Assembly: GCA_965224245.1 (NCBI GenBank)
Contig: OZ245046.1
Coordinates: 768,001-832,000, forward strand
Length of the DNA stretch: 64,000 nt
DNA from: Candidatus Eiseniibacteriota bacterium
Lineage (GTDB): Bacteria; Eisenbacteria; RBG-16-71-46; CAZAMP01
Reading direction: 5' to 3'
The notes under the pieces: generated by a model
What the model saw: the letters and a program-made list of their open reading frames with translations, nothing else
What the model was told of the DNA's origin: nothing
The model's database searches: none
Made by a program: the position numbers and the translations under genes
Shown here: positions 18,810 through 26,704 of the stretch, piece after piece
Numbering within the stretch: the first letter of the stretch is position 1
How the letters are laid out: each line of letters opens with the position of its first letter

Positions 18810-19802
18810 GTGGCCAGATGGACGCGCTCCACGCGCGTGACGTTCTCGCACCGGGTCGAGGCCCTCGGGCTTCGCGCGGGCATCGCGCTCGCGAACGGGG
18901 TTCCCCACGAGCGGGCCCTCGAGCTGGGGGCGTGGCTCGGCGACCTCGCGTGGCACGCCGGAGTCCGCCGACGGGTCGTTCTCGAGGCTCTGGCCCGGGC
19001 CGACGGGATGCCGGCCGACACCGACGCGCGGGTGCGGATTGCGAGGGATTGCTACCGGAACTTCGGCCGCACGTTCGTGGAGTACGCGCGTCTGGGCGGC
19101 CCCACCGGCCCCGAGCTCGTGTCACGCGTCAGCGTGGACCGCGGCGAGTACCTGGAGCGCGCCATCGGCGCCGGCCGCGGCGTCCTGGCGGTGAGCGGGC
19201 ACTTCGGCAGCCTCGAGCTCATGGCGACCGCCATGGGCCGGTTCGGCGTGCGCCCGACGCTGCTGGTGGCGCCGATGCGAAACCCGCTGGCCAACGCGCT
19301 CTTCGCCGAGCGACGACGACGATACGGCGTCGACGTGATCGAGGTGGGGCCGGGGCTCCGCCAGGCCCTGGTCGTGCTGAAGCGCGGGGGGCTCCTGTGT
19401 CTCGCGGTCGATCAGGACGCAGGCCGTCACGGCGTCTTCGTCGACTTCCTGGGGCGGCCGGCCTCGACGCCGGCCGGCGTGGTCGAGCTCGGACTGCGAT
19501 CCGGAGCGCCGGTGGTCTTCGGGCTCGCATTCCGGGAGCCGCCGCCCGTCGGCCGGCGCGGCGGCGGCCATCACGTCGTCCGGCTTCGACCGCCGGTGGA
19601 TCTCGTTTCGCGGGGCGACCACGACGCGACCGTTCGGTACTATCTGCAGCTTCTCTCGGACTGGCTCGGCGAGGGCGTTCGCGAGCGGCCCGATCACTGG
19701 TTCTGGATGCACCGGCGCTGGAAGACCCGGCCCGATTCCGGGTCGGCCTCCACGCGCCCGCACGGCGAGACCGCCCGCACCCGTGGAGCTGGAGACGCAT
19801 GA
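18810..19802 (+). CDS. Lipid A biosynthesis late acyltransferase (LpxL/HtrB family)
   Basis: GHFGSLE, DQDAG...VDFLGRPAST, PDHWFWMHRRWK; GGAGG RBS. Confidence 0.9.
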   Translation: MARWTRSTRVTFSHRVEALGLRAGIALANGVPHERALELGAWLGDLAWHAGVRRRVVLEALARADGMPADTDARVRIARDCYRNFGRTFVEYARLGGPTGPELVSRVSVDRGEYLERAIGAGRGVLAVSGHFGSLELMATAMGRFGVRPTLLVAPMRNPLANALFAERRRRYGVDVIEVGPGLRQALVVLKRGGLLCLAVDQDAGRHGVFVDFLGRPASTPAGVVELGLRSGAPVVFGLAFREPPPVGRRGGGHHVVRLRPPVDLVSRGDHDATVRYYLQLLSDWLGEGVRERPDHWFWMHRRWKTRPDSGSASTRPHGETARTRGAGDA

Positions 19803-20683
19803 ACGGTTACACGATCACGCTCGGCAACCCCGACACGCTCCCGGACGATCCGGCCGTCGTCGTGATCCCGGCGCCCTACGATCGCACCGCGTGCTATCAG
19901 CCGGGGTCCCGGCGGGGGCCGGACGCGATCCTGACCGCGTCGGCGAACATGGAGTTCTACGACGAGGTGCTCGGCTTCGATCCCTCGCGCGTGGGCATCG
20001 CGACGCTGGCCCCGCTCGAGGTGTCCGCCGACGGGCCGCGTCTGATGTGTGATCGCGTGCGCGACGTCGTCGCTGCGGTCCTGGCCGAGAAGCGGCTCCC
20101 CCTCGTCCTCGGGGGCGAGCACTCGGTCACGATCGGAGCGATCGAGGCGGTGGCCGCCGTGCACCCGTCGGTGTCGATCCTGCATCTCGACGCGCACGCC
20201 GATCTTCGCGACGAGTACGAGGGGAGCCGCTACAGCCACGCCTGCGTGATGCGCCGCGCCCGCGAGCGGTGCAAGGCGGTCTCCCTGGGCATCCGGAGCG
20301 TGAGCGAGGCCGAGGCGAGCTGGGCCCGGGAGACCGGAACCGCGCTCACCAGCGTTCGTGAGTGCCGCGAGCGCGGCTGGGATCTCGACGCCCTCTGCGG
20401 CGATCTCGGTGACGAGGTCTACGTGACCCTGGACGTGGACGCGCTCGATCCGAGCATCATGCCCGCCACCGGGACGCCCGAGCCGGGGGGGTTCGTCTGG
20501 GACGAGATCGACGCGCTCCTGGCGTGGGTGGCGGAACGCCGTCGCGTGGTCGGCTTCGACATCGTCGAGCTGATGCCGATTCCGGGATTCGTGGCGCCCG
20601 ACTATCTCGTCGCGCGCCTCGCGTACCGCATGATCGGCCGCGTGCTCGGGTCGCGTCGCCAGCGAGACGGGGGCGACGTGTGA
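19799..20683 (+). CDS. speB: Agmatinase
   Basis: GGEHSVT, HLDAHADLRD, SHAC, TLDVDALDPS..PATGTPEPGG. Confidence 0.93.
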   Translation: MNGYTITLGNPDTLPDDPAVVVIPAPYDRTACYQPGSRRGPDAILTASANMEFYDEVLGFDPSRVGIATLAPLEVSADGPRLMCDRVRDVVAAVLAEKRLPLVLGGEHSVTIGAIEAVAAVHPSVSILHLDAHADLRDEYEGSRYSHACVMRRARERCKAVSLGIRSVSEAEASWARETGTALTSVRECRERGWDLDALCGDLGDEVYVTLDVDALDPSIMPATGTPEPGGFVWDEIDALLAWVAERRRVVGFDIVELMPIPGFVAPDYLVARLAYRMIGRVLGSRRQRDGGDV

Positions 20684-21246
20684 GCGACCCCGTGGCCATC
20701 CACGTCGGTGGGCGGCTGCGCCGCCTCCGTCTGGCCAAGGCGATGACGCTGATGGACCTCCAGAGCGCCGCGGGGGTCAGCACCGCGCACATCTCCGAGA
20801 TCGAGCGCGGCCACACGTCCCCGACCATCTTCACGCTCGAACGCATCGCGACCGCGCTCGGCATCGACGTGGCCGAGCTCCTGTCGCCCGAGCGAGACGA
20901 GCCGGTGGCCGTCGTGCGAGGCGCCGATCGAACGACCGTGGCGATTGCCGACGGCGTCGTGATGGAGCCGCTCTCCACCGGTCGCCGGACGACGTCGCTC
21001 AGCGCGTTCCACGTCCGACTGGCTCCCCGGGCATGCGCACGGCCGCGACCGGGACGGCACTACGGCGAGGAGATCGTCGAGATGGAATCGGGCCGGCTGT
21101 TGGTCCGCTCGGCCTCGGACGTCATCGATCTGGCGGGCGAGGATGCGGTCCACATCCTGTCCGAGGGTGCGCTGGAGTTCGAGAACCCGGCTGACGACCG
21201 CGAGGCGCACGCCGTGTGGATCACGGCGCCGGCGCTGGTCTGGTGA
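20680..21246 (+). CDS. XRE-family HTH plus cupin regulator (PuuR-like), copy 1
   Basis: HISEIERGHTSPTI HTH, HYGEE cupin motif; GTGA overlap with speB. Confidence 0.85.
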   Translation: MSDPVAIHVGGRLRRLRLAKAMTLMDLQSAAGVSTAHISEIERGHTSPTIFTLERIATALGIDVAELLSPERDEPVAVVRGADRTTVAIADGVVMEPLSTGRRTTSLSAFHVRLAPRACARPRPGRHYGEEIVEMESGRLLVRSASDVIDLAGEDAVHILSEGALEFENPADDREAHAVWITAPALVW

Positions 21247-21779
21247 CGCGCGCCGACCGCGATCAGCTCGGCGCGCGCATTCGTGCCGAGCGAAAGCGAC
21301 TCTCGCGCACGCTGAAGGACGTCGAGCGGGAATCGGGACTCTCGTCCACCCACATCTCGGAGATCGAGCGCGGCAAGAGCTCGCCGACCATCGGCGCGCT
21401 CGTGCGCATCGCACACGCGCTGGGGGTCGATCCCGCCGAGCTCCTGGAGGCCGAGCCACGCCGCCGTGTGGTCGTCGTTCGCGGGGACGATCGCGGCGTG
21501 GGTCGCCCGGCCACCGTGCGACCGCTCGGCTCCGGCGTGCGCGGCGGACACCTGCGCTTCGCCCACGTGACCCTGCTCGACGACGAGCCCGTGGTGTTCC
21601 GCGAGGTACCGGAGCTGTGCGCGATCGTCCGGACCGGCGATCTGATCTACGAGCTCGGGGAGCGCCGCGAGCGACTCGGTGCCGGCGATGCGGTTCACGC
21701 GGTGGGTGTGGGCGCGCACACGTTTCGGCGGGGGACCACGAGCGACACGCGACTCACGCTGGTCTACGTCCGGACGTAG
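21243..21779 (+). CDS. XRE-family HTH plus cupin regulator, copy 2
   Basis: HISEIERGKSSPTI HTH, LGAGDAV...HTFR cupin; GTGA overlap. Confidence 0.85.
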   Translation: MTRADRDQLGARIRAERKRLSRTLKDVERESGLSSTHISEIERGKSSPTIGALVRIAHALGVDPAELLEAEPRRRVVVVRGDDRGVGRPATVRPLGSGVRGGHLRFAHVTLLDDEPVVFREVPELCAIVRTGDLIYELGERRERLGAGDAVHAVGVGAHTFRRGTTSDTRLTLVYVRT

Positions 21780-21795
21780 CGGCGATCCCTCGCGG

Positions 21796-22656
21796 CTAGT
21801 CCGGATCCCGGGACGACGCGTCGCCCACGCGCTCGCGCCGCTTGGCGTCGTCCCACAACGCGTCCATCTCCTCCAGCGTGACGTCCTCCGGGCGCCGCCC
21901 CGCTCGTGCCAGCTCGCGCTCGACGTGGCGGAAGCGCTCGTAGAATCGCCGGTTGGTCCCGCGAAGGGCCGCCTCGGGGTCGATCGCGAGAAAGCGCGCG
22001 ACGTTGGTGACCGCGAACAGGAGGTCGCCGATCTCGGCGCGGATGTCCGCGCCCGCGGCGCGGCTCTCTCGCGATTCCGCGGCGACGCCGTCACGGAGCT
22101 CGTCGGTCTCCTCGCGCACCTTTTCGAGAGCGCCGTCGACCGATGGGAAGTCGAAGCCGACGGCCGCGGCGCGTTCCTGCATCCGAAACGCCGCGAGCAG
22201 CGCCGGCCTCGAGCGCTCGAAGCGGCCCAGGACGCTCGCCGCGTCGGCGGCGTCCCCGTCGGACTGCTCCTCACGCTTGGCGCGCTGCCAGCTCTCGCGA
22301 GCCACCCGCTGGTCCTGCGACGGTGAGTCGCCGAACACGTGCGGATGTCGCCTGACCAGCTTCTCCACGGTCCCGTCCACGATCACGTCGAGCGTTCCGA
22401 TGGACTCGGTCTCGGCCGCATGCAACGCGAAGACGGTCACGAACAGGAGGTCGCCCAGCTCCTCGCGGATGTCGGCGGCGGTGCCGGACGCGATGGCGTC
22501 CAGGACCTCGTGGACCTCCTCGAGGAGATAGGGCGTGAGCGTGCGAAGCGTCTGGGCCCGATCCCACGAGCAGCCGTCCTGGCCGCGCAGGCGTTCACAG
22601 AGCGCCAGCATGCGGCCGACCACGTGCCCGCGCCGGCCGAACGGAGTGTCGTACAT
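21796..22656 (-). CDS. mazG: Nucleoside triphosphate pyrophosphohydrolase MazG
   Basis: GCSWDRAQT, EELGDLL, KLVRRHPHVFG, EIGDLLF, two MazG domains. Confidence 0.95.
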   Translation of the reverse strand: MYDTPFGRRGHVVGRMLALCERLRGQDGCSWDRAQTLRTLTPYLLEEVHEVLDAIASGTAADIREELGDLLFVTVFALHAAETESIGTLDVIVDGTVEKLVRRHPHVFGDSPSQDQRVARESWQRAKREEQSDGDAADAASVLGRFERSRPALLAAFRMQERAAAVGFDFPSVDGALEKVREETDELRDGVAAESRESRAAGADIRAEIGDLLFAVTNVARFLAIDPEAALRGTNRRFYERFRHVERELARAGRRPEDVTLEEMDALWDDAKRRERVGDASSRDPD

Positions 22657-22741: not shown

Positions 22742-23901
<1,160 letters not shown>

Positions 23902-23905
<4 letters not shown>

Positions 23906-24345
23906 TCGAGGCGACCCGCGCCGCGCTCGACGACGCCGACCGCGCGCTGATCGCGGCGGCCGAGCGTGCCCGCGAGCGGGCCCACGCGCCCTACTCGGGG
24001 TTCCGGGTCGGGGCGGCGGTTCGCGGCGAGGGCGGTCGCGTCGTGTCCGGCTGTAACGTCGAGAACGCGACGTTCGGGCTCACCCTGTGCGCCGAGCGCG
24101 TCGCCGTGTTCGCGGCGATCGCCGAGGGGCTCGCGTCGCTCGAGGCGCTCGCGGTCGTGGTGGCGCCCGATCAACCGGCCTTGCCCTGCGGCATCTGTCG
24201 CGAGATGCTGCGTGAGTTCGCGCCGGCGGTGCGGGTGATCCTCTCGGGTCGGGGTGATGCGGTGAGGGTCGCGAGCGTGGGGGAGCTCATCGCGGGCTCA
24301 CCGGACGCATCAACGGGTGAGAGCGGGGGAGGCCGTTCGTCATGA
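23902..24345 (+). CDS. cdd: Cytidine deaminase
   Basis: [27 protein letters not shown]. Confidence 0.95.
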
Positions 24346-25361
24346 CCCATCACCACCGGGACGCACCGATCGGAGCCGACGTGACCGCGCACGAGGTCGA
24401 GGAGATCGTGCGCCGCGTGCTCGCCCGCCTCGACGTCGGCCCTCCGCGCGCACCACACCTTCTCGGCGACCGTTCTCGGGGACACGCCGACCTTCCACCG
24501 GAGCTCCGCGGAACCTACGCGGGTCGGTGGGAGGAGCCCACCGACGACGCGGTGGGCGTGGTCAGTCCCGTCACGGGGCCCGACGCCGGGCGCTGTCTCG
24601 GCTGCCGTCTGCCCGGTGCCTGTGCCTGGGTGTGCCCGGCGACCACGCGACGCGTGCTCCAGGAGGGCGCCGATCGCGTCGGGGCGAGCCTGGGCGCCGA
24701 GGCCACGTCCCTCTCGGTCGCACGCCGCATCGATCACACGCTTCTCGCGGCCAACGCCACCCGGGGCGCGGTCGATCGGCTGTGCGACGAGGCGCTGCGG
24801 TACCGGTTCGCCACCGTCTGCGTCAACGGCCACTGGGTTCCCCGCGTCGCCGAGCGCCTCGCGGGCTCGGAAGTGGACGTGTGCGCCGTGGTCGGGTTTC
24901 CCCTGGGCGCCACGTTTCCCGAGGTCAAGGCGGCGGAGGCGCGGCAAGCCGTTCGCGACGGCGCGGCCGAGATCGACATGGTCATGCAGATCGGCGCGCT
25001 GAAGTCGCGCGATCACGCGCTGGTGTCTCGTGACATCCGCGCGGTGGTGTCGGCCGTCGGCGTTCCGGTCAAGGTCATCCTGGAGACGGCGCTTCTGACC
25101 GACGAGGAGAAGGTCGAGGCGTGTGTGCTGGCCAAGGCGGCGGGGGCGGCGTTCGTGAAGACGTCCACCGGCTTCGGGCCGTCGGGCGCGACGGTCGAGG
25201 ACGTGCGCCTGATGCGCCGCGTCGTGGGGGGCGACGTCGGGGTGAAGGCGTCCGGCGGCGTCCGCTCGGCCGACCAGGCTCAGGCCATGATCGAGGCCGG
25301 CGCCACGCGCATCGGCGCCAGCGCCTCGATCGCCATCCTCGGGGGACCGAACCTGACGTGA
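24342..25361 (+). CDS. deoC: Deoxyribose-phosphate aldolase with a ~120-aa N-terminal extension
   Basis: [43 protein letters not shown]. Confidence 0.95.
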
Positions 25362-26704
25362 ACGCCGTCCGACTGATCATCCGAAAGCGCCGGGGCGAGG
25401 AGCTGACCCCGGACGACATCGGGAGCCTCGTGTCCGCGTACGCGGGAGGTGACGTCCCCGACTACCAGATGTCGGCGTTTCTGATGGCCGTGCTCTGGCG
25501 CGGCATGACCGACGGCGAGACGGTGGCGCTGACCCGCGCCATGATCGACTCGGGCACCGTCATCACCTACCCCGATCTTCACCCCACCGTGGACAAGCAC
25601 TCCACCGGCGGGGTCGGCGACAAGGTCTCGATTGTTCTGGCGCCGCTGGCGGCGGCCTGCGACGTGTACGTGCCCATGCTGTCGGGACGGGGGCTCGGGC
25701 ACACCGGCGGCACGCTCGACAAGCTCGAGTCGATCCCGGGGTTCGTCACCGACCTCGACACCGAGCGCTTTCAGCGCATCCTGCGCGACGTGGGCTGCGT
25801 CATGGGCGGCCAGAGCGCCGACCTGGCGCCGGCGGACGGGAAGATCTACGCGCTCCGCGACGCCACGGGCACGGTCGAGTCGCCGCCGTTGATCGTGTCC
25901 AGCATCCTGTCCAAGAAGATCGCCGCCGGACCCGAGTCGCTGGTGTTCGACGTGAAGGTGGGACGCGGCGCCTTCATGCCGACGCGCCGCGCCGCCTCGG
26001 ACCTCGCCCAGCGACTGGTTCGGACCGGCGCCGCGTTCGGGAAGCCGATCCTCGCGTTCGTCACGAACATGGACGTGCCGCTGGGCCGCGGAATCGGCAA
26101 TGCGATCGAGGTCGTCGAGTGTCTGGACATGCTCGAGCGCCGTCCGGTGAGCGAGGATCTGGCCATGCTGACGACCCTCCTCGCCTCCGCGATGCTCGTC
26201 ACGTCGGGTCGCGCCCCGACGCTCGTCGAGGCTCGCGAGGAGGTCGAGTCGGGTCTGGCGTCGGGGCGGGCCGCCGAGCGGTTCGAGCGGCTCGTGCGCG
26301 CGCACGGCGGCGACGCCGCTGCGCTCGATCGCCGCGCGCTGCCGGCGGCCGAGCGCACGATCCGGGTCGCGAGCCCGGCCGCCGGTGTCGTGGCCGACGT
26401 GGATCCGTTCGCGCTGGCCACGCTCGTCACCGACCTCGGAGGCGGGCGGCGCGTGATGTCCGACGCGATCGATCCGGCCGTGGGGATCTGGCTCGATGCG
26501 CGCCCCGGCGATCACGTCGGGCGAGGAGACGCACTCGCGACCGTTCACGTCAACGGATCGTGGGACGAGTCCGAGCTGGGGGAGCACGTTCGTCGTGCGT
26601 TTCGGATCGACGAAGACGCGCCGCGCAGCGAGCTGGTGTACGAGGTCGTGGGACCTCGTGGCCGTGTGCCCTGGTCGGGCTGGGAGACCGCGCTCCCCCT
26701 GTGA
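25358..26704 (+). CDS. pdp: Pyrimidine-nucleoside / thymidine phosphorylase
   Basis: [42 protein letters not shown]. Confidence 0.95.

Follow-up and report, generated by a model that had tools for sequence, protein, structure and literature searches.

A deoxyribose-phosphate aldolase in an Eisenbacteria deo operon with a probable microcompartment address helix and a four-cysteine motif

The deoC gene described here encodes a class I deoxyribose-phosphate aldolase (DERA) with a long N-terminal extension, and its sequence suggests that the enzyme is very probably cargo of a bacterial microcompartment (BMC) whose shell genes lie elsewhere in the genome. The gene is part of a Candidatus Eiseniibacteriota assembly, in a window of 64,000 nucleotides (positions 768,001 to 832,000 of contig OZ245046.1, here C1). 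The evidence comes from a helix shared with an aldehyde dehydrogenase (AldDH) of the shell operon and from the distribution of the extension among related genomes.

The aldolase and its operon

DERA belongs to a four-gene nucleoside-catabolic operon (deoB-like, cdd, deoC, pdp), and the gene order is identical in the relative G001. The features of the operon are:

22742..23905, forward strand: deoB-like phosphopentomutase, the first of the four genes (PF01676 Metalloenzyme, E 3e-32)
23902..24345, forward strand: cdd, cytidine deaminase (PF00383, E 2e-15; PF08211)
24325..24332, forward strand: Shine-Dalgarno-like GGGGGAGG, read from the sequence, ending 9 nt upstream of the DERA start codon
24342..25361, forward strand: deoC, DERA with N-terminal extension, 339 aa (open reading frame list, PF01791, TIGR00126, Foldseek)
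25358..26704, forward strand: pdp, pyrimidine-nucleoside phosphorylase (PF00591, PF02885, PF07831)

The deoB-like TGA stop overlaps the ATG start of cdd at 23902 (ATGA), the cdd TGA is overlapped by the DERA ATG at 24342 (again ATGA), and the DERA stop is overlapped by the GTG start of pdp (GTGA).

The identity of the product is clear from its catalytic domain. TIGR00126 (deoC) matches residues 126-332 with 279.2 bits against a cut-off of 117.3, and PF01791 covers residues 130-326 only (42.7 against 23.8), so about 125 residues are left as an extension. A Foldseek search with the DERA model returned only DERA barrels, including that of the ordinary cytosolic class I enzyme of B. halodurans (BH1352, PDB 6d33; E 4e-25, 59% identity, TM 0.96 to the target). 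The matched solved structures have 201-258 residues, compared with 339 here, and therefore have no room for the extension. D212, K244 and K273 are invariant in a 64-sequence alignment; we take these to be the conserved Asp, Schiff-base Lys and second Lys (D102, K167 and K201 of the E. coli enzyme), partly by the motifs EID, VKVILET and FVKTSTG.

The extension is translated, as indicated by the ATGA overlap, the ribosome-binding site 9 nt upstream, the coding GC pattern of the frame (0.82/0.59/0.83) and the conservation of the helix and cysteines described below. It is scarcely credible that the extension is untranslated and that the true start lies just upstream of the catalytic domain. Some public annotations of homologues do begin at the barrel (entries of 217-246 aa); automated calls often miss the extension, according to the available text of Dwyer 2024 (PMC11585597). 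Against such a start, the helix, the PPELRG-GRW motif of the linker and all four cysteines are conserved at the amino-acid level across assemblies, and the frame has ATGA coupling with a strong Shine-Dalgarno sequence as well as the coding GC pattern. The same evidence disposes of the concern, raised with the original prediction, that translation might start downstream of the helix.

Anatomy of the extension

The extension consists of an amphipathic helix, a disordered linker, the motif CxxC-x5-C-x3-CP and a conserved segment before the barrel:

24387..24431, forward strand: predicted encapsulation-peptide (EP) helix, residues 16-30 (AlphaFold2, hydrophobic moment, conservation, match to AldDH)
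24432..24593, forward strand: Pro/Gly-rich linker, residues 31-84 (low pLDDT, with a conserved motif inside)
24594..24638, forward strand: four-cysteine cluster C85-x2-C88-x5-C94-x3-C98-P99 (sequence, conservation)
24639..24716, forward strand: conserved pre-barrel segment (G[AV]xR[hydrophobic] motif, AlphaFold2 helix)
24717..25358, forward strand: class I DERA TIM-barrel catalytic domain, residues 126-339 (TIGR00126, Foldseek, invariant residues)

AlphaFold2, run on the 64-sequence alignment, placed a helix at residues 16-29 with pLDDT 80-87. It contains the most amphipathic 14-mer of the protein (muH 0.65), a value that is also attained by 8% of shuffles of the helix's own residues, so amphipathicity on its own is weak evidence. 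E21, V23-L27 and R29 are invariant in four proteins from different assemblies. Behind the helix comes a run rich in Pro, Gly and Arg. The linker falls below pLDDT 50 over residues 36-48 and 54-92 and is variable among the same four proteins apart from the motif LPPELRG-x4-GRW[DE]EP-x-D (residues 51-68), which is unique in the genome and in which P52-G57, G61-W63, P66 and D68 are invariant. In the pre-barrel segment, AlphaFold2 gave a helix at residues 99-107 (pLDDT about 70), and of 100 homologues whose extension has at least 50 aa, 97 contain the G[AV]xR[hydrophobic] motif.

The long form makes up a rare sequence family: phmmer with the extension as query (126 aa) found only two proteins among 1.84 billion representatives. 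A word-index search with the extension found three relatives, an ESM Atlas search gave no usable match, and a related-locus search of genome contigs returned a single locus, that of G001.

A helix shared with the shell-operon aldehyde dehydrogenase

EPs are recognized as short terminal amphipathic helices on a flexible, poorly conserved linker, with a similar peptide on other cargo, shell genes in the same genome and no such peptide on homologues from organisms that lack BMCs. DERA has the helix and linker, and the other cargo is the shell-operon AldDH, whose N-terminus begins ...RIDDIVERVLARLESGP and carries nearly the same helix. The pattern IV[ERKQ]RV[LIM][AE]R[LIM] had exactly two matches in 13.87 million six-frame codons, namely the N-termini of DERA and of this AldDH. 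A comparable N-terminal helix is present in 81 of 120 AldDH homologues. Such EP-like N-terminal extensions are known from BMC-associated pfam01791 proteins, and the available parts of Sutter 2021 (PMC8217296) and Dwyer 2024 (PMC11585597) describe none on a non-BMC DERA.

The AldDH (NF011927, 619 bits) is encoded in a shell operon at C1:1496156-1499164, about 704 kb from the DERA gene, which contains BMC-H, BMC-P, AldDH, a tandem BMC-T and a further BMC-P; AldDH is its only enzyme. The third BMC-P gene is found in a locus for a nucleoside transporter, kinase and deaminase, together with an RpiB and a second DERA (DERA2). In this RpiB the position of the housekeeping enzyme's catalytic Cys is taken by Asp; neither this protein nor DERA2 carries an EP. 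Either aldolase, the EP-bearing DERA or DERA2, might be the main cargo. The original prediction had seen no shell genes in the window and had pointed to the rest of the genome for shell genes and an EP-bearing AldDH. Both turned up: none of the PF00936 and PF03319 matches of the genome falls inside C1:768001-832000, and they include the shell operon with its helix-bearing AldDH.

Some parts expected of a metabolosome did not appear. PTAC (PF06130) was not found in the genome, which leaves CoA recycling inside the shell unexplained. The three annotated regions showed no PduS, and no alcohol dehydrogenase was seen in the annotated regions either.

Co-occurrence of the extension with BMC genes

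Co-occurrence in relatives, which had also been put forward as a check, bore out the connection. In a first sample of 41 genomes, PF00936 was present in 27/27 genomes whose DERA match reached into the extension and missing from six of the seven with an extension-less match. In a second sample of 121 genomes, which overlaps the first, BMC-P was found in 73/77 genomes with an extension-type DERA versus 3/20 with an extension-less DERA; the sampled genomes are kin, and these counts overstate independence. Within families f18 and f13 the extension and BMC genes vary by loss or gain, and their presence and absence track each other. DERA and BMC-H are about 0.7-1 kb apart in six of the 27 genomes (G007, G021, G028, G034, G014 and G039). 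The G021 locus reads RPI-DERA-BMC-H-BMC-P-AldDH-BMC-T-BMC-P-BMC-P and includes a nucleoside transporter.

There were three exceptions. G077 (90% complete) carries a genuine extension whose Cys are spaced as here, and G104 (85% complete) has an extension-type DERA; no shell gene was found in either. G096 has BMC-P and a plain DERA. The raw profile-start criterion overlooked G033 and G107, whose extensions are divergent or fused, and it mislabelled G069 and G111, where open GC-rich upstream frames had aligned spuriously. Once their sequences were read, these two had no extension and were rejected as extension-bearing.

These data also bear on another explanation, in which the extension is unrelated to BMCs and serves as a regulatory or oligomerization domain of a cytosolic DERA, with co-occurrence reflecting shared ancestry. 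The gene does belong to an ordinary deo operon that has no shell genes, the compared genomes are kin, and G077 and G104 have the extension with no shell gene found. However, those two assemblies are incomplete, nothing else in the genome but the shell-operon AldDH has the helix motif, six relatives have the orthologue next to BMC-H, and presence and absence track each other within f18 and f13. We regard a purely cytosolic role as highly improbable.

Proposed role in a scattered metabolosome

What the data show are the identity of the domain, the helix in common with AldDH, the co-occurrence across genomes and the layouts of the loci; encapsulation, flux through the pathway and a bound metal are our inferences. 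The Pdp, cdd and deoB-like mutase products of the operon would convert (deoxy)nucleosides to deoxyribose-5-phosphate. The N-terminal amphipathic helix would draw DERA into the microcompartment, acting as the same address peptide as on the acylating AldDH of the shell operon. Inside the shell, DERA would cleave deoxyribose-5-phosphate into glyceraldehyde-3-phosphate plus acetaldehyde, and the co-packaged AldDH would turn acetaldehyde into acetyl-CoA. In relatives the orthologous DERA still resides in the shell operon; in the family of the gene studied here it would have moved into the deo operon.

We hold the whole explanation to be likely: DERA would generate the aldehyde, as signature enzyme of a metabolosome of the SPU/HO/MIC7 kind with scattered genes (see the final section). 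The original inference of a satellite locus feeding a deoxyribose/nucleoside-degrading microcompartment is thus supported by the shell genes, the shared helix and the co-occurrence. If so, a microcompartment locus with 'no obvious signature enzyme' (MIC7/HO-like) is linked to its likely substrate, and a BMC pathway can be wired straight into a deo operon of the ordinary type. The criterion is simple and reusable: an address helix that the product of a distant gene has in common with the aldehyde dehydrogenase of the shell operon. The result also supports the idea, published in Sutter 2021 (PMC8217296) and Dwyer 2024 (PMC11585597) as far as their available text goes, of organelles that burn deoxyribose from scavenged DNA.

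The cysteine cluster

All four cysteines are invariant in the four closest sequences, each from a different assembly. Further out the motif is frequent and variable. The parsed set of 119 nearest homologues includes 13 with the identical CxxC-x5-C-x3-C spacing, and 62 of 100 long-extension homologues have at least four Cys. Among 38 relatives read, 17 have at least four Cys and 14 have two or fewer; the latter still have BMC. Spacings among relatives include CxxCxxCxxC (n = 7), CxxCx5CxxxC (n = 4) and CxxCxxCxxxC (n = 2), and several relatives have a ferredoxin-like core, C-[IV]-x-C-G-x-C. The AlphaFold2 model is unconfident over the Cys region (pLDDT about 45-54).

Profile searches gave little beyond the catalytic domain. 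A Pfam search of DERA at E up to 1 produced Fer4 matches below cut-off only (E 0.006-0.06), with Fer4_2 at 16.9 bits against 24.5 and Fer4_6 at 15.5 against 25. Fer4 matched seven of 64 relatives' DERAs, all below threshold (best E 0.017). NCBIfam at E up to 0.01 gave deoC-type and TIM-barrel models only, with nothing on the extension. There was no HMM match in DERA to the SPASM domain (TIGR04085), with which it shares only the CX2CX5CX3C spacing, the same as in the genome's two radical-SAM/SPASM proteins. The motif resembles the ferredoxin-type CxxCxxCxxxCP in having four Cys within 14 residues followed by Pro, and the ferredoxin-type spacing itself is present in relatives G039 and G014. It differs from ferredoxin and SPASM Fe-S domains in being single, without a second cluster motif or a radical-SAM core, in its frequent loss and in the lack of a significant Fer4 or SPASM match.

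The four-Cys motif is therefore real, and its reading as a ferredoxin-like 4Fe-4S site is not borne out, given the x5 spacing (x2 in the known motif quoted with the original prediction), the sub-threshold Fer4 matches, the unconfident model and the loss in many relatives that keep the BMC. A metal or redox module on the extension is plausible from its sequence. The four cysteines probably bind some metal, for which Fe-S is a tentative candidate and Zn a doubtful one. We propose that they would form an accessory metal-binding knuckle between the flexible linker and the conserved pre-barrel segment. It may be ancestral to this DERA clade, its spacing can vary, and encapsulation would not depend on it.

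Other functions for the cluster of a BMC cargo enzyme can be weighed against the same data. It might be a structural Zn(Cys)4 knuckle with no redox role, its two Cys pairs clamping the linker onto the pre-barrel segment or mediating cargo-cargo contacts. Small zinc knuckles have variable Cys spacing, and here two Cys pairs lie within 14 residues with spacing free to vary among relatives; DERA chemistry does not need electrons, and the Fer4 and SPASM models all fall below cut-off. Yet no zinc-finger family was among the best 25 of 44 families by members matched at E up to 1, several relatives have the ferredoxin-like core and the DERA spacing equals that of the SPASM Fe-S motif, so that this function seems possible but unlikely.

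Still less probable is a set of reversible disulfides through which lumenal redox conditions would switch cargo condensation or activity. Redox disulfide switching of this sort is described for carboxysome scaffold proteins. The motif does lie in a flexible tail beside the address helix and is dispensable in many lineages, as expected of a regulatory add-on, but four Cys this close, flanked by Gly and Pro, more typically ligate a metal, and the annotated loci contain no thioredoxin-like or other redox partner. It is also quite unlikely, though conceivable, that an Fe-S cluster on the flexible DERA tail acts as a redox or oxygen switch for packaging (with AldDH condensation) or as a lumenal electron relay that helps to re-oxidise NADH from AldDH, in a metabolosome for which no PTAC was found in the genome and no alcohol dehydrogenase was seen in the annotated regions; Cys losses would then mark lineages that no longer need such control. 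A PduT-like Fe-S shell pore was dropped as a partner of the cluster: the BMC-T of G001 has no cysteine.

The cluster is not mentioned in the available text of Sutter 2021 (PMC8217296) or Dwyer 2024 (PMC11585597), nor in the supplements of the latter, Table S2 aside, and a literature search on a DERA cysteine or metal site gave no further title or abstract among the matches listed. Its frequency in the BMC-type DERAs of this clade raises a choice between Fe-S, Zn and disulfide. The cluster may also have to do with the insolubility of full-length SPU DERA in heterologous expression, which Dwyer 2024 (PMC11585597, in its available text) ascribes to the address peptide instead.

Comparison with known microcompartments

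The SPU (sugar-phosphate utilisation) BMC is said to go back to Axen 2014. An EP-bearing DERA is a published signature enzyme of SPU BMCs in the available parts of Sutter 2021 (PMC8217296) and Dwyer 2024 (PMC11585597), so the idea is less new than the original prediction assumed, and the scattered BMC here is an already known kind of DNA-sugar-degrading organelle. The whole SPU set is in the genome: a pfam01791 DERA, a pfam02502 RPI in its Asp variant, AldDH and a BMC-P triplet. As in the SPU BMCs of these sources, DERA carries an amphipathic helix near its N-terminus with a segment of poor modelling behind it, AldDH has an EP at the same end, and RpiB has Asp for the catalytic Cys, a substitution that the available text of Dwyer 2024 (PMC11585597) gives for all SPU RPIs. 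The BMC-P triplet and the nucleoside/DNA-scavenging context are also shared, and relative G021 has the full one-locus layout.

Several features differ from SPU as it is described there. The parts are spread over three or more places, the DERA gene being in a deo operon that is 704 kb away from the shell genes; PTAC was not found in the genome, nor PduS in the three annotated regions; the extension has about 125 aa compared with about 70 in SPU; and RpiB has no EP. The signature enzymes lie in the shell locus in G021 and outside it in the studied genome. Because the shell operon holds only AldDH, with the EP-bearing DERA so far off and a one-locus layout in G021, we file the studied genome as a scattered SPU derivative, MIC7/HO/FRAG-like in layout.

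HO BMC genomes have a remote pfam01791 gene with an EP-like extension, according to the available part of Sutter 2021 (PMC8217296). As here, a shell and AldDH locus without a signature enzyme is accompanied by an EP-bearing DeoC-family gene elsewhere, and nucleic-acid catabolism is the proposed function. The lineage differs, as the nearest named AldDH homologues here are from Ca. Eisenbacteria and not Myxococcales, and the link is explicit here through the near-identical helix on AldDH and DERA.

FRAG (fragmented) types, in the available text of Sutter 2021 (PMC8217296), likewise have shell genes at several genomic places and a BMC-P triplet, whereas here most shell genes and AldDH are in one operon, with one BMC-P and the cargo genes displaced. 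MIC7, a 'metabolosome with incomplete core', is listed for Ca. Eisenbacteria RBG_16_71_46 in Supplementary Data 1 of that paper and catalogued, with function unknown, as having AldDH without an obvious signature enzyme. The shell locus studied here has the same set and order as is given there for MIC7, with BMC-H(s), BMC-P, an AldDH-sized gap, a PduT-like BMC-T and BMC-P(s), and from this layout and the taxon we infer its membership of MIC7.

The aldolase and its N-terminal extension

The protein is encoded within the deo operon (deoB, cdd, deoC, pdp) at:

24342..25361, +, ORF of 339 aa in the ORF list, deoxyribose-phosphate aldolase (DERA, the deoC product)

Over its C-terminal two thirds the protein is a typical class I deoxyribose-phosphate aldolase, because this part matches PF01791 (residues 130-326) and the NCBIfam deoC equivalog TIGR00126 (residues 126-332, scoring 279 bits where the cut-off is 117), its AlphaFold2 model (64-sequence alignment, mean pLDDT 79.4) has the fold of solved DERAs (best match B. 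halodurans 6d33, 59% identity, TM 0.96 to target), and D212, K244, and K273 are unchanged in all 64 aligned sequences. Residues 1 to ~125 form an extension ahead of this barrel. As the original prediction described, it has a helix at residues 14-30 followed by a Pro/Gly-rich stretch, and a cysteine cluster, CxxC-x5-C-x3-CP, at residues 85-99.

The extension is translated. The start ATG at 24342 overlaps the cdd stop (ATGA), an overlap of the same kind as at the deoB/cdd and deoC/pdp junctions, and GGGGGAGG lies upstream, ending 9 nt from the ATG. The extension frame has a coding GC pattern, and the helix core (E21, V23-L27, R29) and all four extension cysteines are unchanged in 4/4 proteins from different assemblies. 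A start downstream of the helix, on which the original prediction would fall, is not borne out: the ATGA overlap, GC pattern, and residue conservation place the start before it.

AlphaFold2 models the helix at residues 16-29 (pLDDT 80-87), with residues 36-92 below 50. This helix is the 14-mer of highest amphipathicity in the whole DERA; shuffling its residues gives an equally amphipathic peptide in 8% of trials, so amphipathicity alone is weak evidence. A linker motif, LPPELRG-x4-GRW[DE]EP-x-D (window 24492-24545), is unchanged in the four closest sequences and has no second copy in the six-frame genome. It is also visible in most of 13 long-form DERA sequences.

Shell genes elsewhere in the genome

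The source genome (G000; 6.94 Mb, 97% complete) contains both PF00936 and PF03319 genes, encoding the shell proteins BMC-H, BMC-T, and BMC-P of a bacterial microcompartment (BMC):

within annotated C1:1486001-1506000, compact shell operon ~704 kb from DERA: BMC-H, BMC-P, aldehyde dehydrogenase (AldDH), tandem-domain BMC-T, BMC-P
C1:2129435-2129683, third BMC-P, amid nucleoside-salvage genes

The shell-operon AldDH (NF011927, 619 bits) bears the anticipated encapsulation peptide (EP), starting VALDDRRIDDIVERVLARLESGP... and continuing into a Gly/Pro-rich linker. The pattern IV[ERKQ]RV[LIM][AE]R[LIM] has exactly two matches in the six-frame genome (13.87 million codons), both N-terminal: this AldDH and the window DERA. 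With a looser pattern, a comparable N-terminal helix was found in 81/120 AldDH homologues.

Around the third BMC-P are a nucleoside ABC transporter, thymidine/uridine/deoxynucleoside kinases, a phosphoribosyltransferase, and adenosine deaminase. A ribose-5-phosphate isomerase (RpiB), a second DERA (DERA2), and a TonB-dependent receptor follow ~7 kb beyond, and the region also has a weak PorV-like match. DERA2 sits directly 3' of the RpiB, which is of the type found in sugar-phosphate utilisation (SPU) BMCs, and just before the receptor (locus L014 14111-15381, G000:C1:2136111-2137381). The RpiB beside DERA2 has Asp at the catalytic-Cys position; the one beside transketolase retains Cys.

Two further features were seen in this genome. 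Topoisomerase VI subunits A (PF21180/PF04406) and B (PF09239/PF02518), an archaeal-type enzyme in a bacterial host, lie head-to-head with the shell operon (L008 5950-10036, minus strand; G000:C1:1491950-1496036), and the B region is overlapped, in a different frame of that strand, by a long ORF matching APH phosphotransferase. A 205-aa protein (L016 6045-6662, G000:C1:3798045-3798662) has a partial C-terminal BMC domain (PF00936, 35 bits, model 4-62) and is a candidate for an additional, diverged shell protein; weak PF00936 matches at model 4-61 recur in many relatives.

Co-occurrence of the extension with BMC genes

A profile built from four long-form DERAs was run, along with PF00936, against 41 genomes (G000 and 40 relatives), and a DERA was scored as extension-type when its match began at profile position <=90. 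All 27 genomes with such a DERA have PF00936 domains. Seven had a match starting at >=107, six of them without BMC domains; inspection of the seventh, G033, showed a divergent extension with a helix. BMC domains were present in 2/7 genomes without a DERA match. In a second, overlapping sample of 121 genomes (the unpublished G044 counted as one unit), BMC-P occurs in 73/77 genomes with an extension-type match, compared with 3/20 with a DERA match lacking the extension, and in 5/24 without a DERA match. The genomes are kin, so these counts overstate independence; even so, extension and BMC presence/absence vary together inside families f18 and f13.

Several genomes were considered singly. G069 and G111 were rejected as extension-bearing, since the profile match had continued upstream into GC-rich open frames. 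G077 (90% complete) yielded no shell gene, despite a true extension with the window's Cys spacing. The other exceptions are G104 (85% complete), which is cut by a contig end, G096, with a plain DERA together with BMC-P, and G107, with an RPI-DERA fusion adjoining BMC-P. In this last genome, of the same class, the RpiB frame runs stop-free through a helix (EEDLSRILHEVQRLAEG) into DERA (L057, G107:C54:5900-8100), a chimera like the SPU3 fusion in the accessible text of Dwyer et al. 2024 (PMC11585597). In G047 (C27:114228-115187) the DERA match spans one TGA and one TAG; recoding was rejected since the true protein, with a normal helix and CxxCxxCxxC, begins after both stops, which thus lie in upstream non-coding sequence.

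DERA lies 0.7-1 kb from BMC-H in 6/27 genomes (G007, G021, G028, G034, G014, G039). The order in G021 is RPI, DERA, BMC-H, BMC-P, AldDH, BMC-T, BMC-P, BMC-P, with a nucleoside transporter nearby. The G021 RPI has an N-terminal helix of its own, unlike RpiB and DERA2 of G000, which have no address helix. An ADP-forming acetyl-CoA synthetase-type ligase (ATP-grasp_5, Succ_CoA_lig, CoA_binding; L028 1858-3999, G021:C14:1375858-1377999) is encoded a few kb upstream of the BMC locus in G021 and might turn acetyl-CoA into acetate and ATP; no phosphotransacylase (PTAC) was seen among the genes annotated there.

The sole other genome of the source genome's family, G001, has the window's arrangement (arginase-family gene, two HTH-cupin regulators, MazG, deoB, cdd, DERA, pdp, PBP1A). 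Ahead of the operon, window 19772-22590 holds the arginase-family gene, a pair of neighbouring HTH-type regulators, and MazG in divergent orientation; the Pfam cupin domain on the regulators is found in G001 only. Since G001 shares this arrangement, the two regulators are candidates for controlling the deo operon.

The reading of the window DERA as putative BMC cargo has support both within G000 and among relatives: the shell genes, the helix shared with AldDH, the co-occurrence, and the adjacency to BMC-H. On the simplest account, the family of G000 and G001 dispersed an SPU-type one-locus system, and the EP-bearing DERA was inserted into the deo operon. Nucleosides may come from DNA taken up via the neighbouring TonB-receptor locus, and pdp, cdd, and the deoB-like mutase would phosphorolyse and isomerise them to deoxyribose-5-phosphate. 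The helix would hold DERA in the organelle, where the acetaldehyde from its reaction would be trapped by the adjacent AldDH as acetyl-CoA; glyceraldehyde-3-phosphate would exit to glycolysis. This scheme leaves unexplained the EP-less RpiB/DERA2 pair and PTAC, which was not found in the G000 genome.

The cysteine cluster

Among the 119 nearest DERA homologues parsed (63-76% barrel identity; cluster representatives, partly redundant), the extension is at least 50 aa long in 100, and 97 of these share a pre-barrel segment, G[AV]xR[hydrophobic]. Cysteine counts among these 100 are four or more in 62, three in 11, and at most two in 27; the window's spacing, CxxC-x5-C-x3-C, occurs in 13. The corresponding counts for 38 extension-bearing DERAs from related genomes (G014 and G020 scored by eye) are 17, 7, and 14. 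Spacings among the 17 are CxxCxxCxxC (7), CxxCx5CxxxC (4; G000, G001, G006, G077), CxxCxxCxxxC (2; G039, G014), and others (4). In family f9 the cluster decays from TCERCR..GV...GYCPASDG to TRERLR..S...GYCPASDG while the BMC is kept (L021, L025, L026, L032, L064-L066). Given these varying counts and spacings and the f9 decay, the cluster is, as judged from sequence, an old, variable accessory not required for encapsulation. The f9 genomes retain three BMC-P genes, and the series offers a natural 'mutant' set for probing Cys function.

The cluster had been called ferredoxin-like; the four-Cys motif stands, and its identity as a 4Fe-4S site is putative. Fer4 models fall below threshold on the window DERA and in all 7/64 relatives with matches (best E 0.017), NCBIfam models and the ESM Atlas gave no other match to the region, and AlphaFold2 confidence there is low. 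Fe-S binding is plausible: many relatives' extensions have a ferredoxin-like core, C-[IV]-x-C-G-x-C, and the other coding CX2CX5CX3C motifs of G000 are confined to two radical-SAM proteins, inside their SPASM domains (TIGR04085); both observations point to Fe-S. The cluster's variable spacing and dispensability are just as compatible with a Zn(Cys)4 knuckle, or with disulfide switching.

Comparison with published BMC types

This system is an already known kind of BMC. In the accessible parts of Sutter et al. 2021 (PMC8217296), SPU BMCs are defined by pfam01791 and pfam02502, with degradation of DNA-derived sugar phosphates proposed, and some genomes with HO-type BMCs carry, at another place, a pfam01791 gene whose product has an EP-like extension at its N-terminus. 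The accessible text of Dwyer et al. 2024 (PMC11585597) describes an N-terminal amphipathic helix and low-confidence segment in all SPU DERAs, absent from non-BMC DERAs, and reports full-length SPU DERA to be insoluble. There, AldDH EPs are N-terminal in every SPU subtype except SPU6, and Asp replaces the catalytic Cys in all SPU RPIs, as in the RpiB beside DERA2. That text and its supplements mention cysteine only for RPI and in methods, with no DERA cluster, and no further paper treats a DERA cysteine or metal site by title or abstract among the matches listed.

The accessible curated SPU table of Dwyer et al. has no Eisenbacteria locus. The nearest named homologues of the shell-operon AldDH are mostly from Ca. 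Eisenbacteria. Supplementary Data 1 of Sutter et al. assigns to 'MIC7 (main)' the shell genes A2W00_06460-06490 of Ca. Eisenbacteria RBG_16_71_46, which have the same layout as the G000 shell operon; from this layout and the taxon we infer that the latter belongs to MIC7. MIC types are listed by Sutter et al. among loci with AldDH but without an obvious signature enzyme. Our results thus add two modest new angles: the link that the shared helix gives to a 'signature-less' type of locus and, within the accessible Dwyer et al. text and the titles and abstracts of the matches listed, a previously undescribed Cys cluster on a BMC-type DERA.
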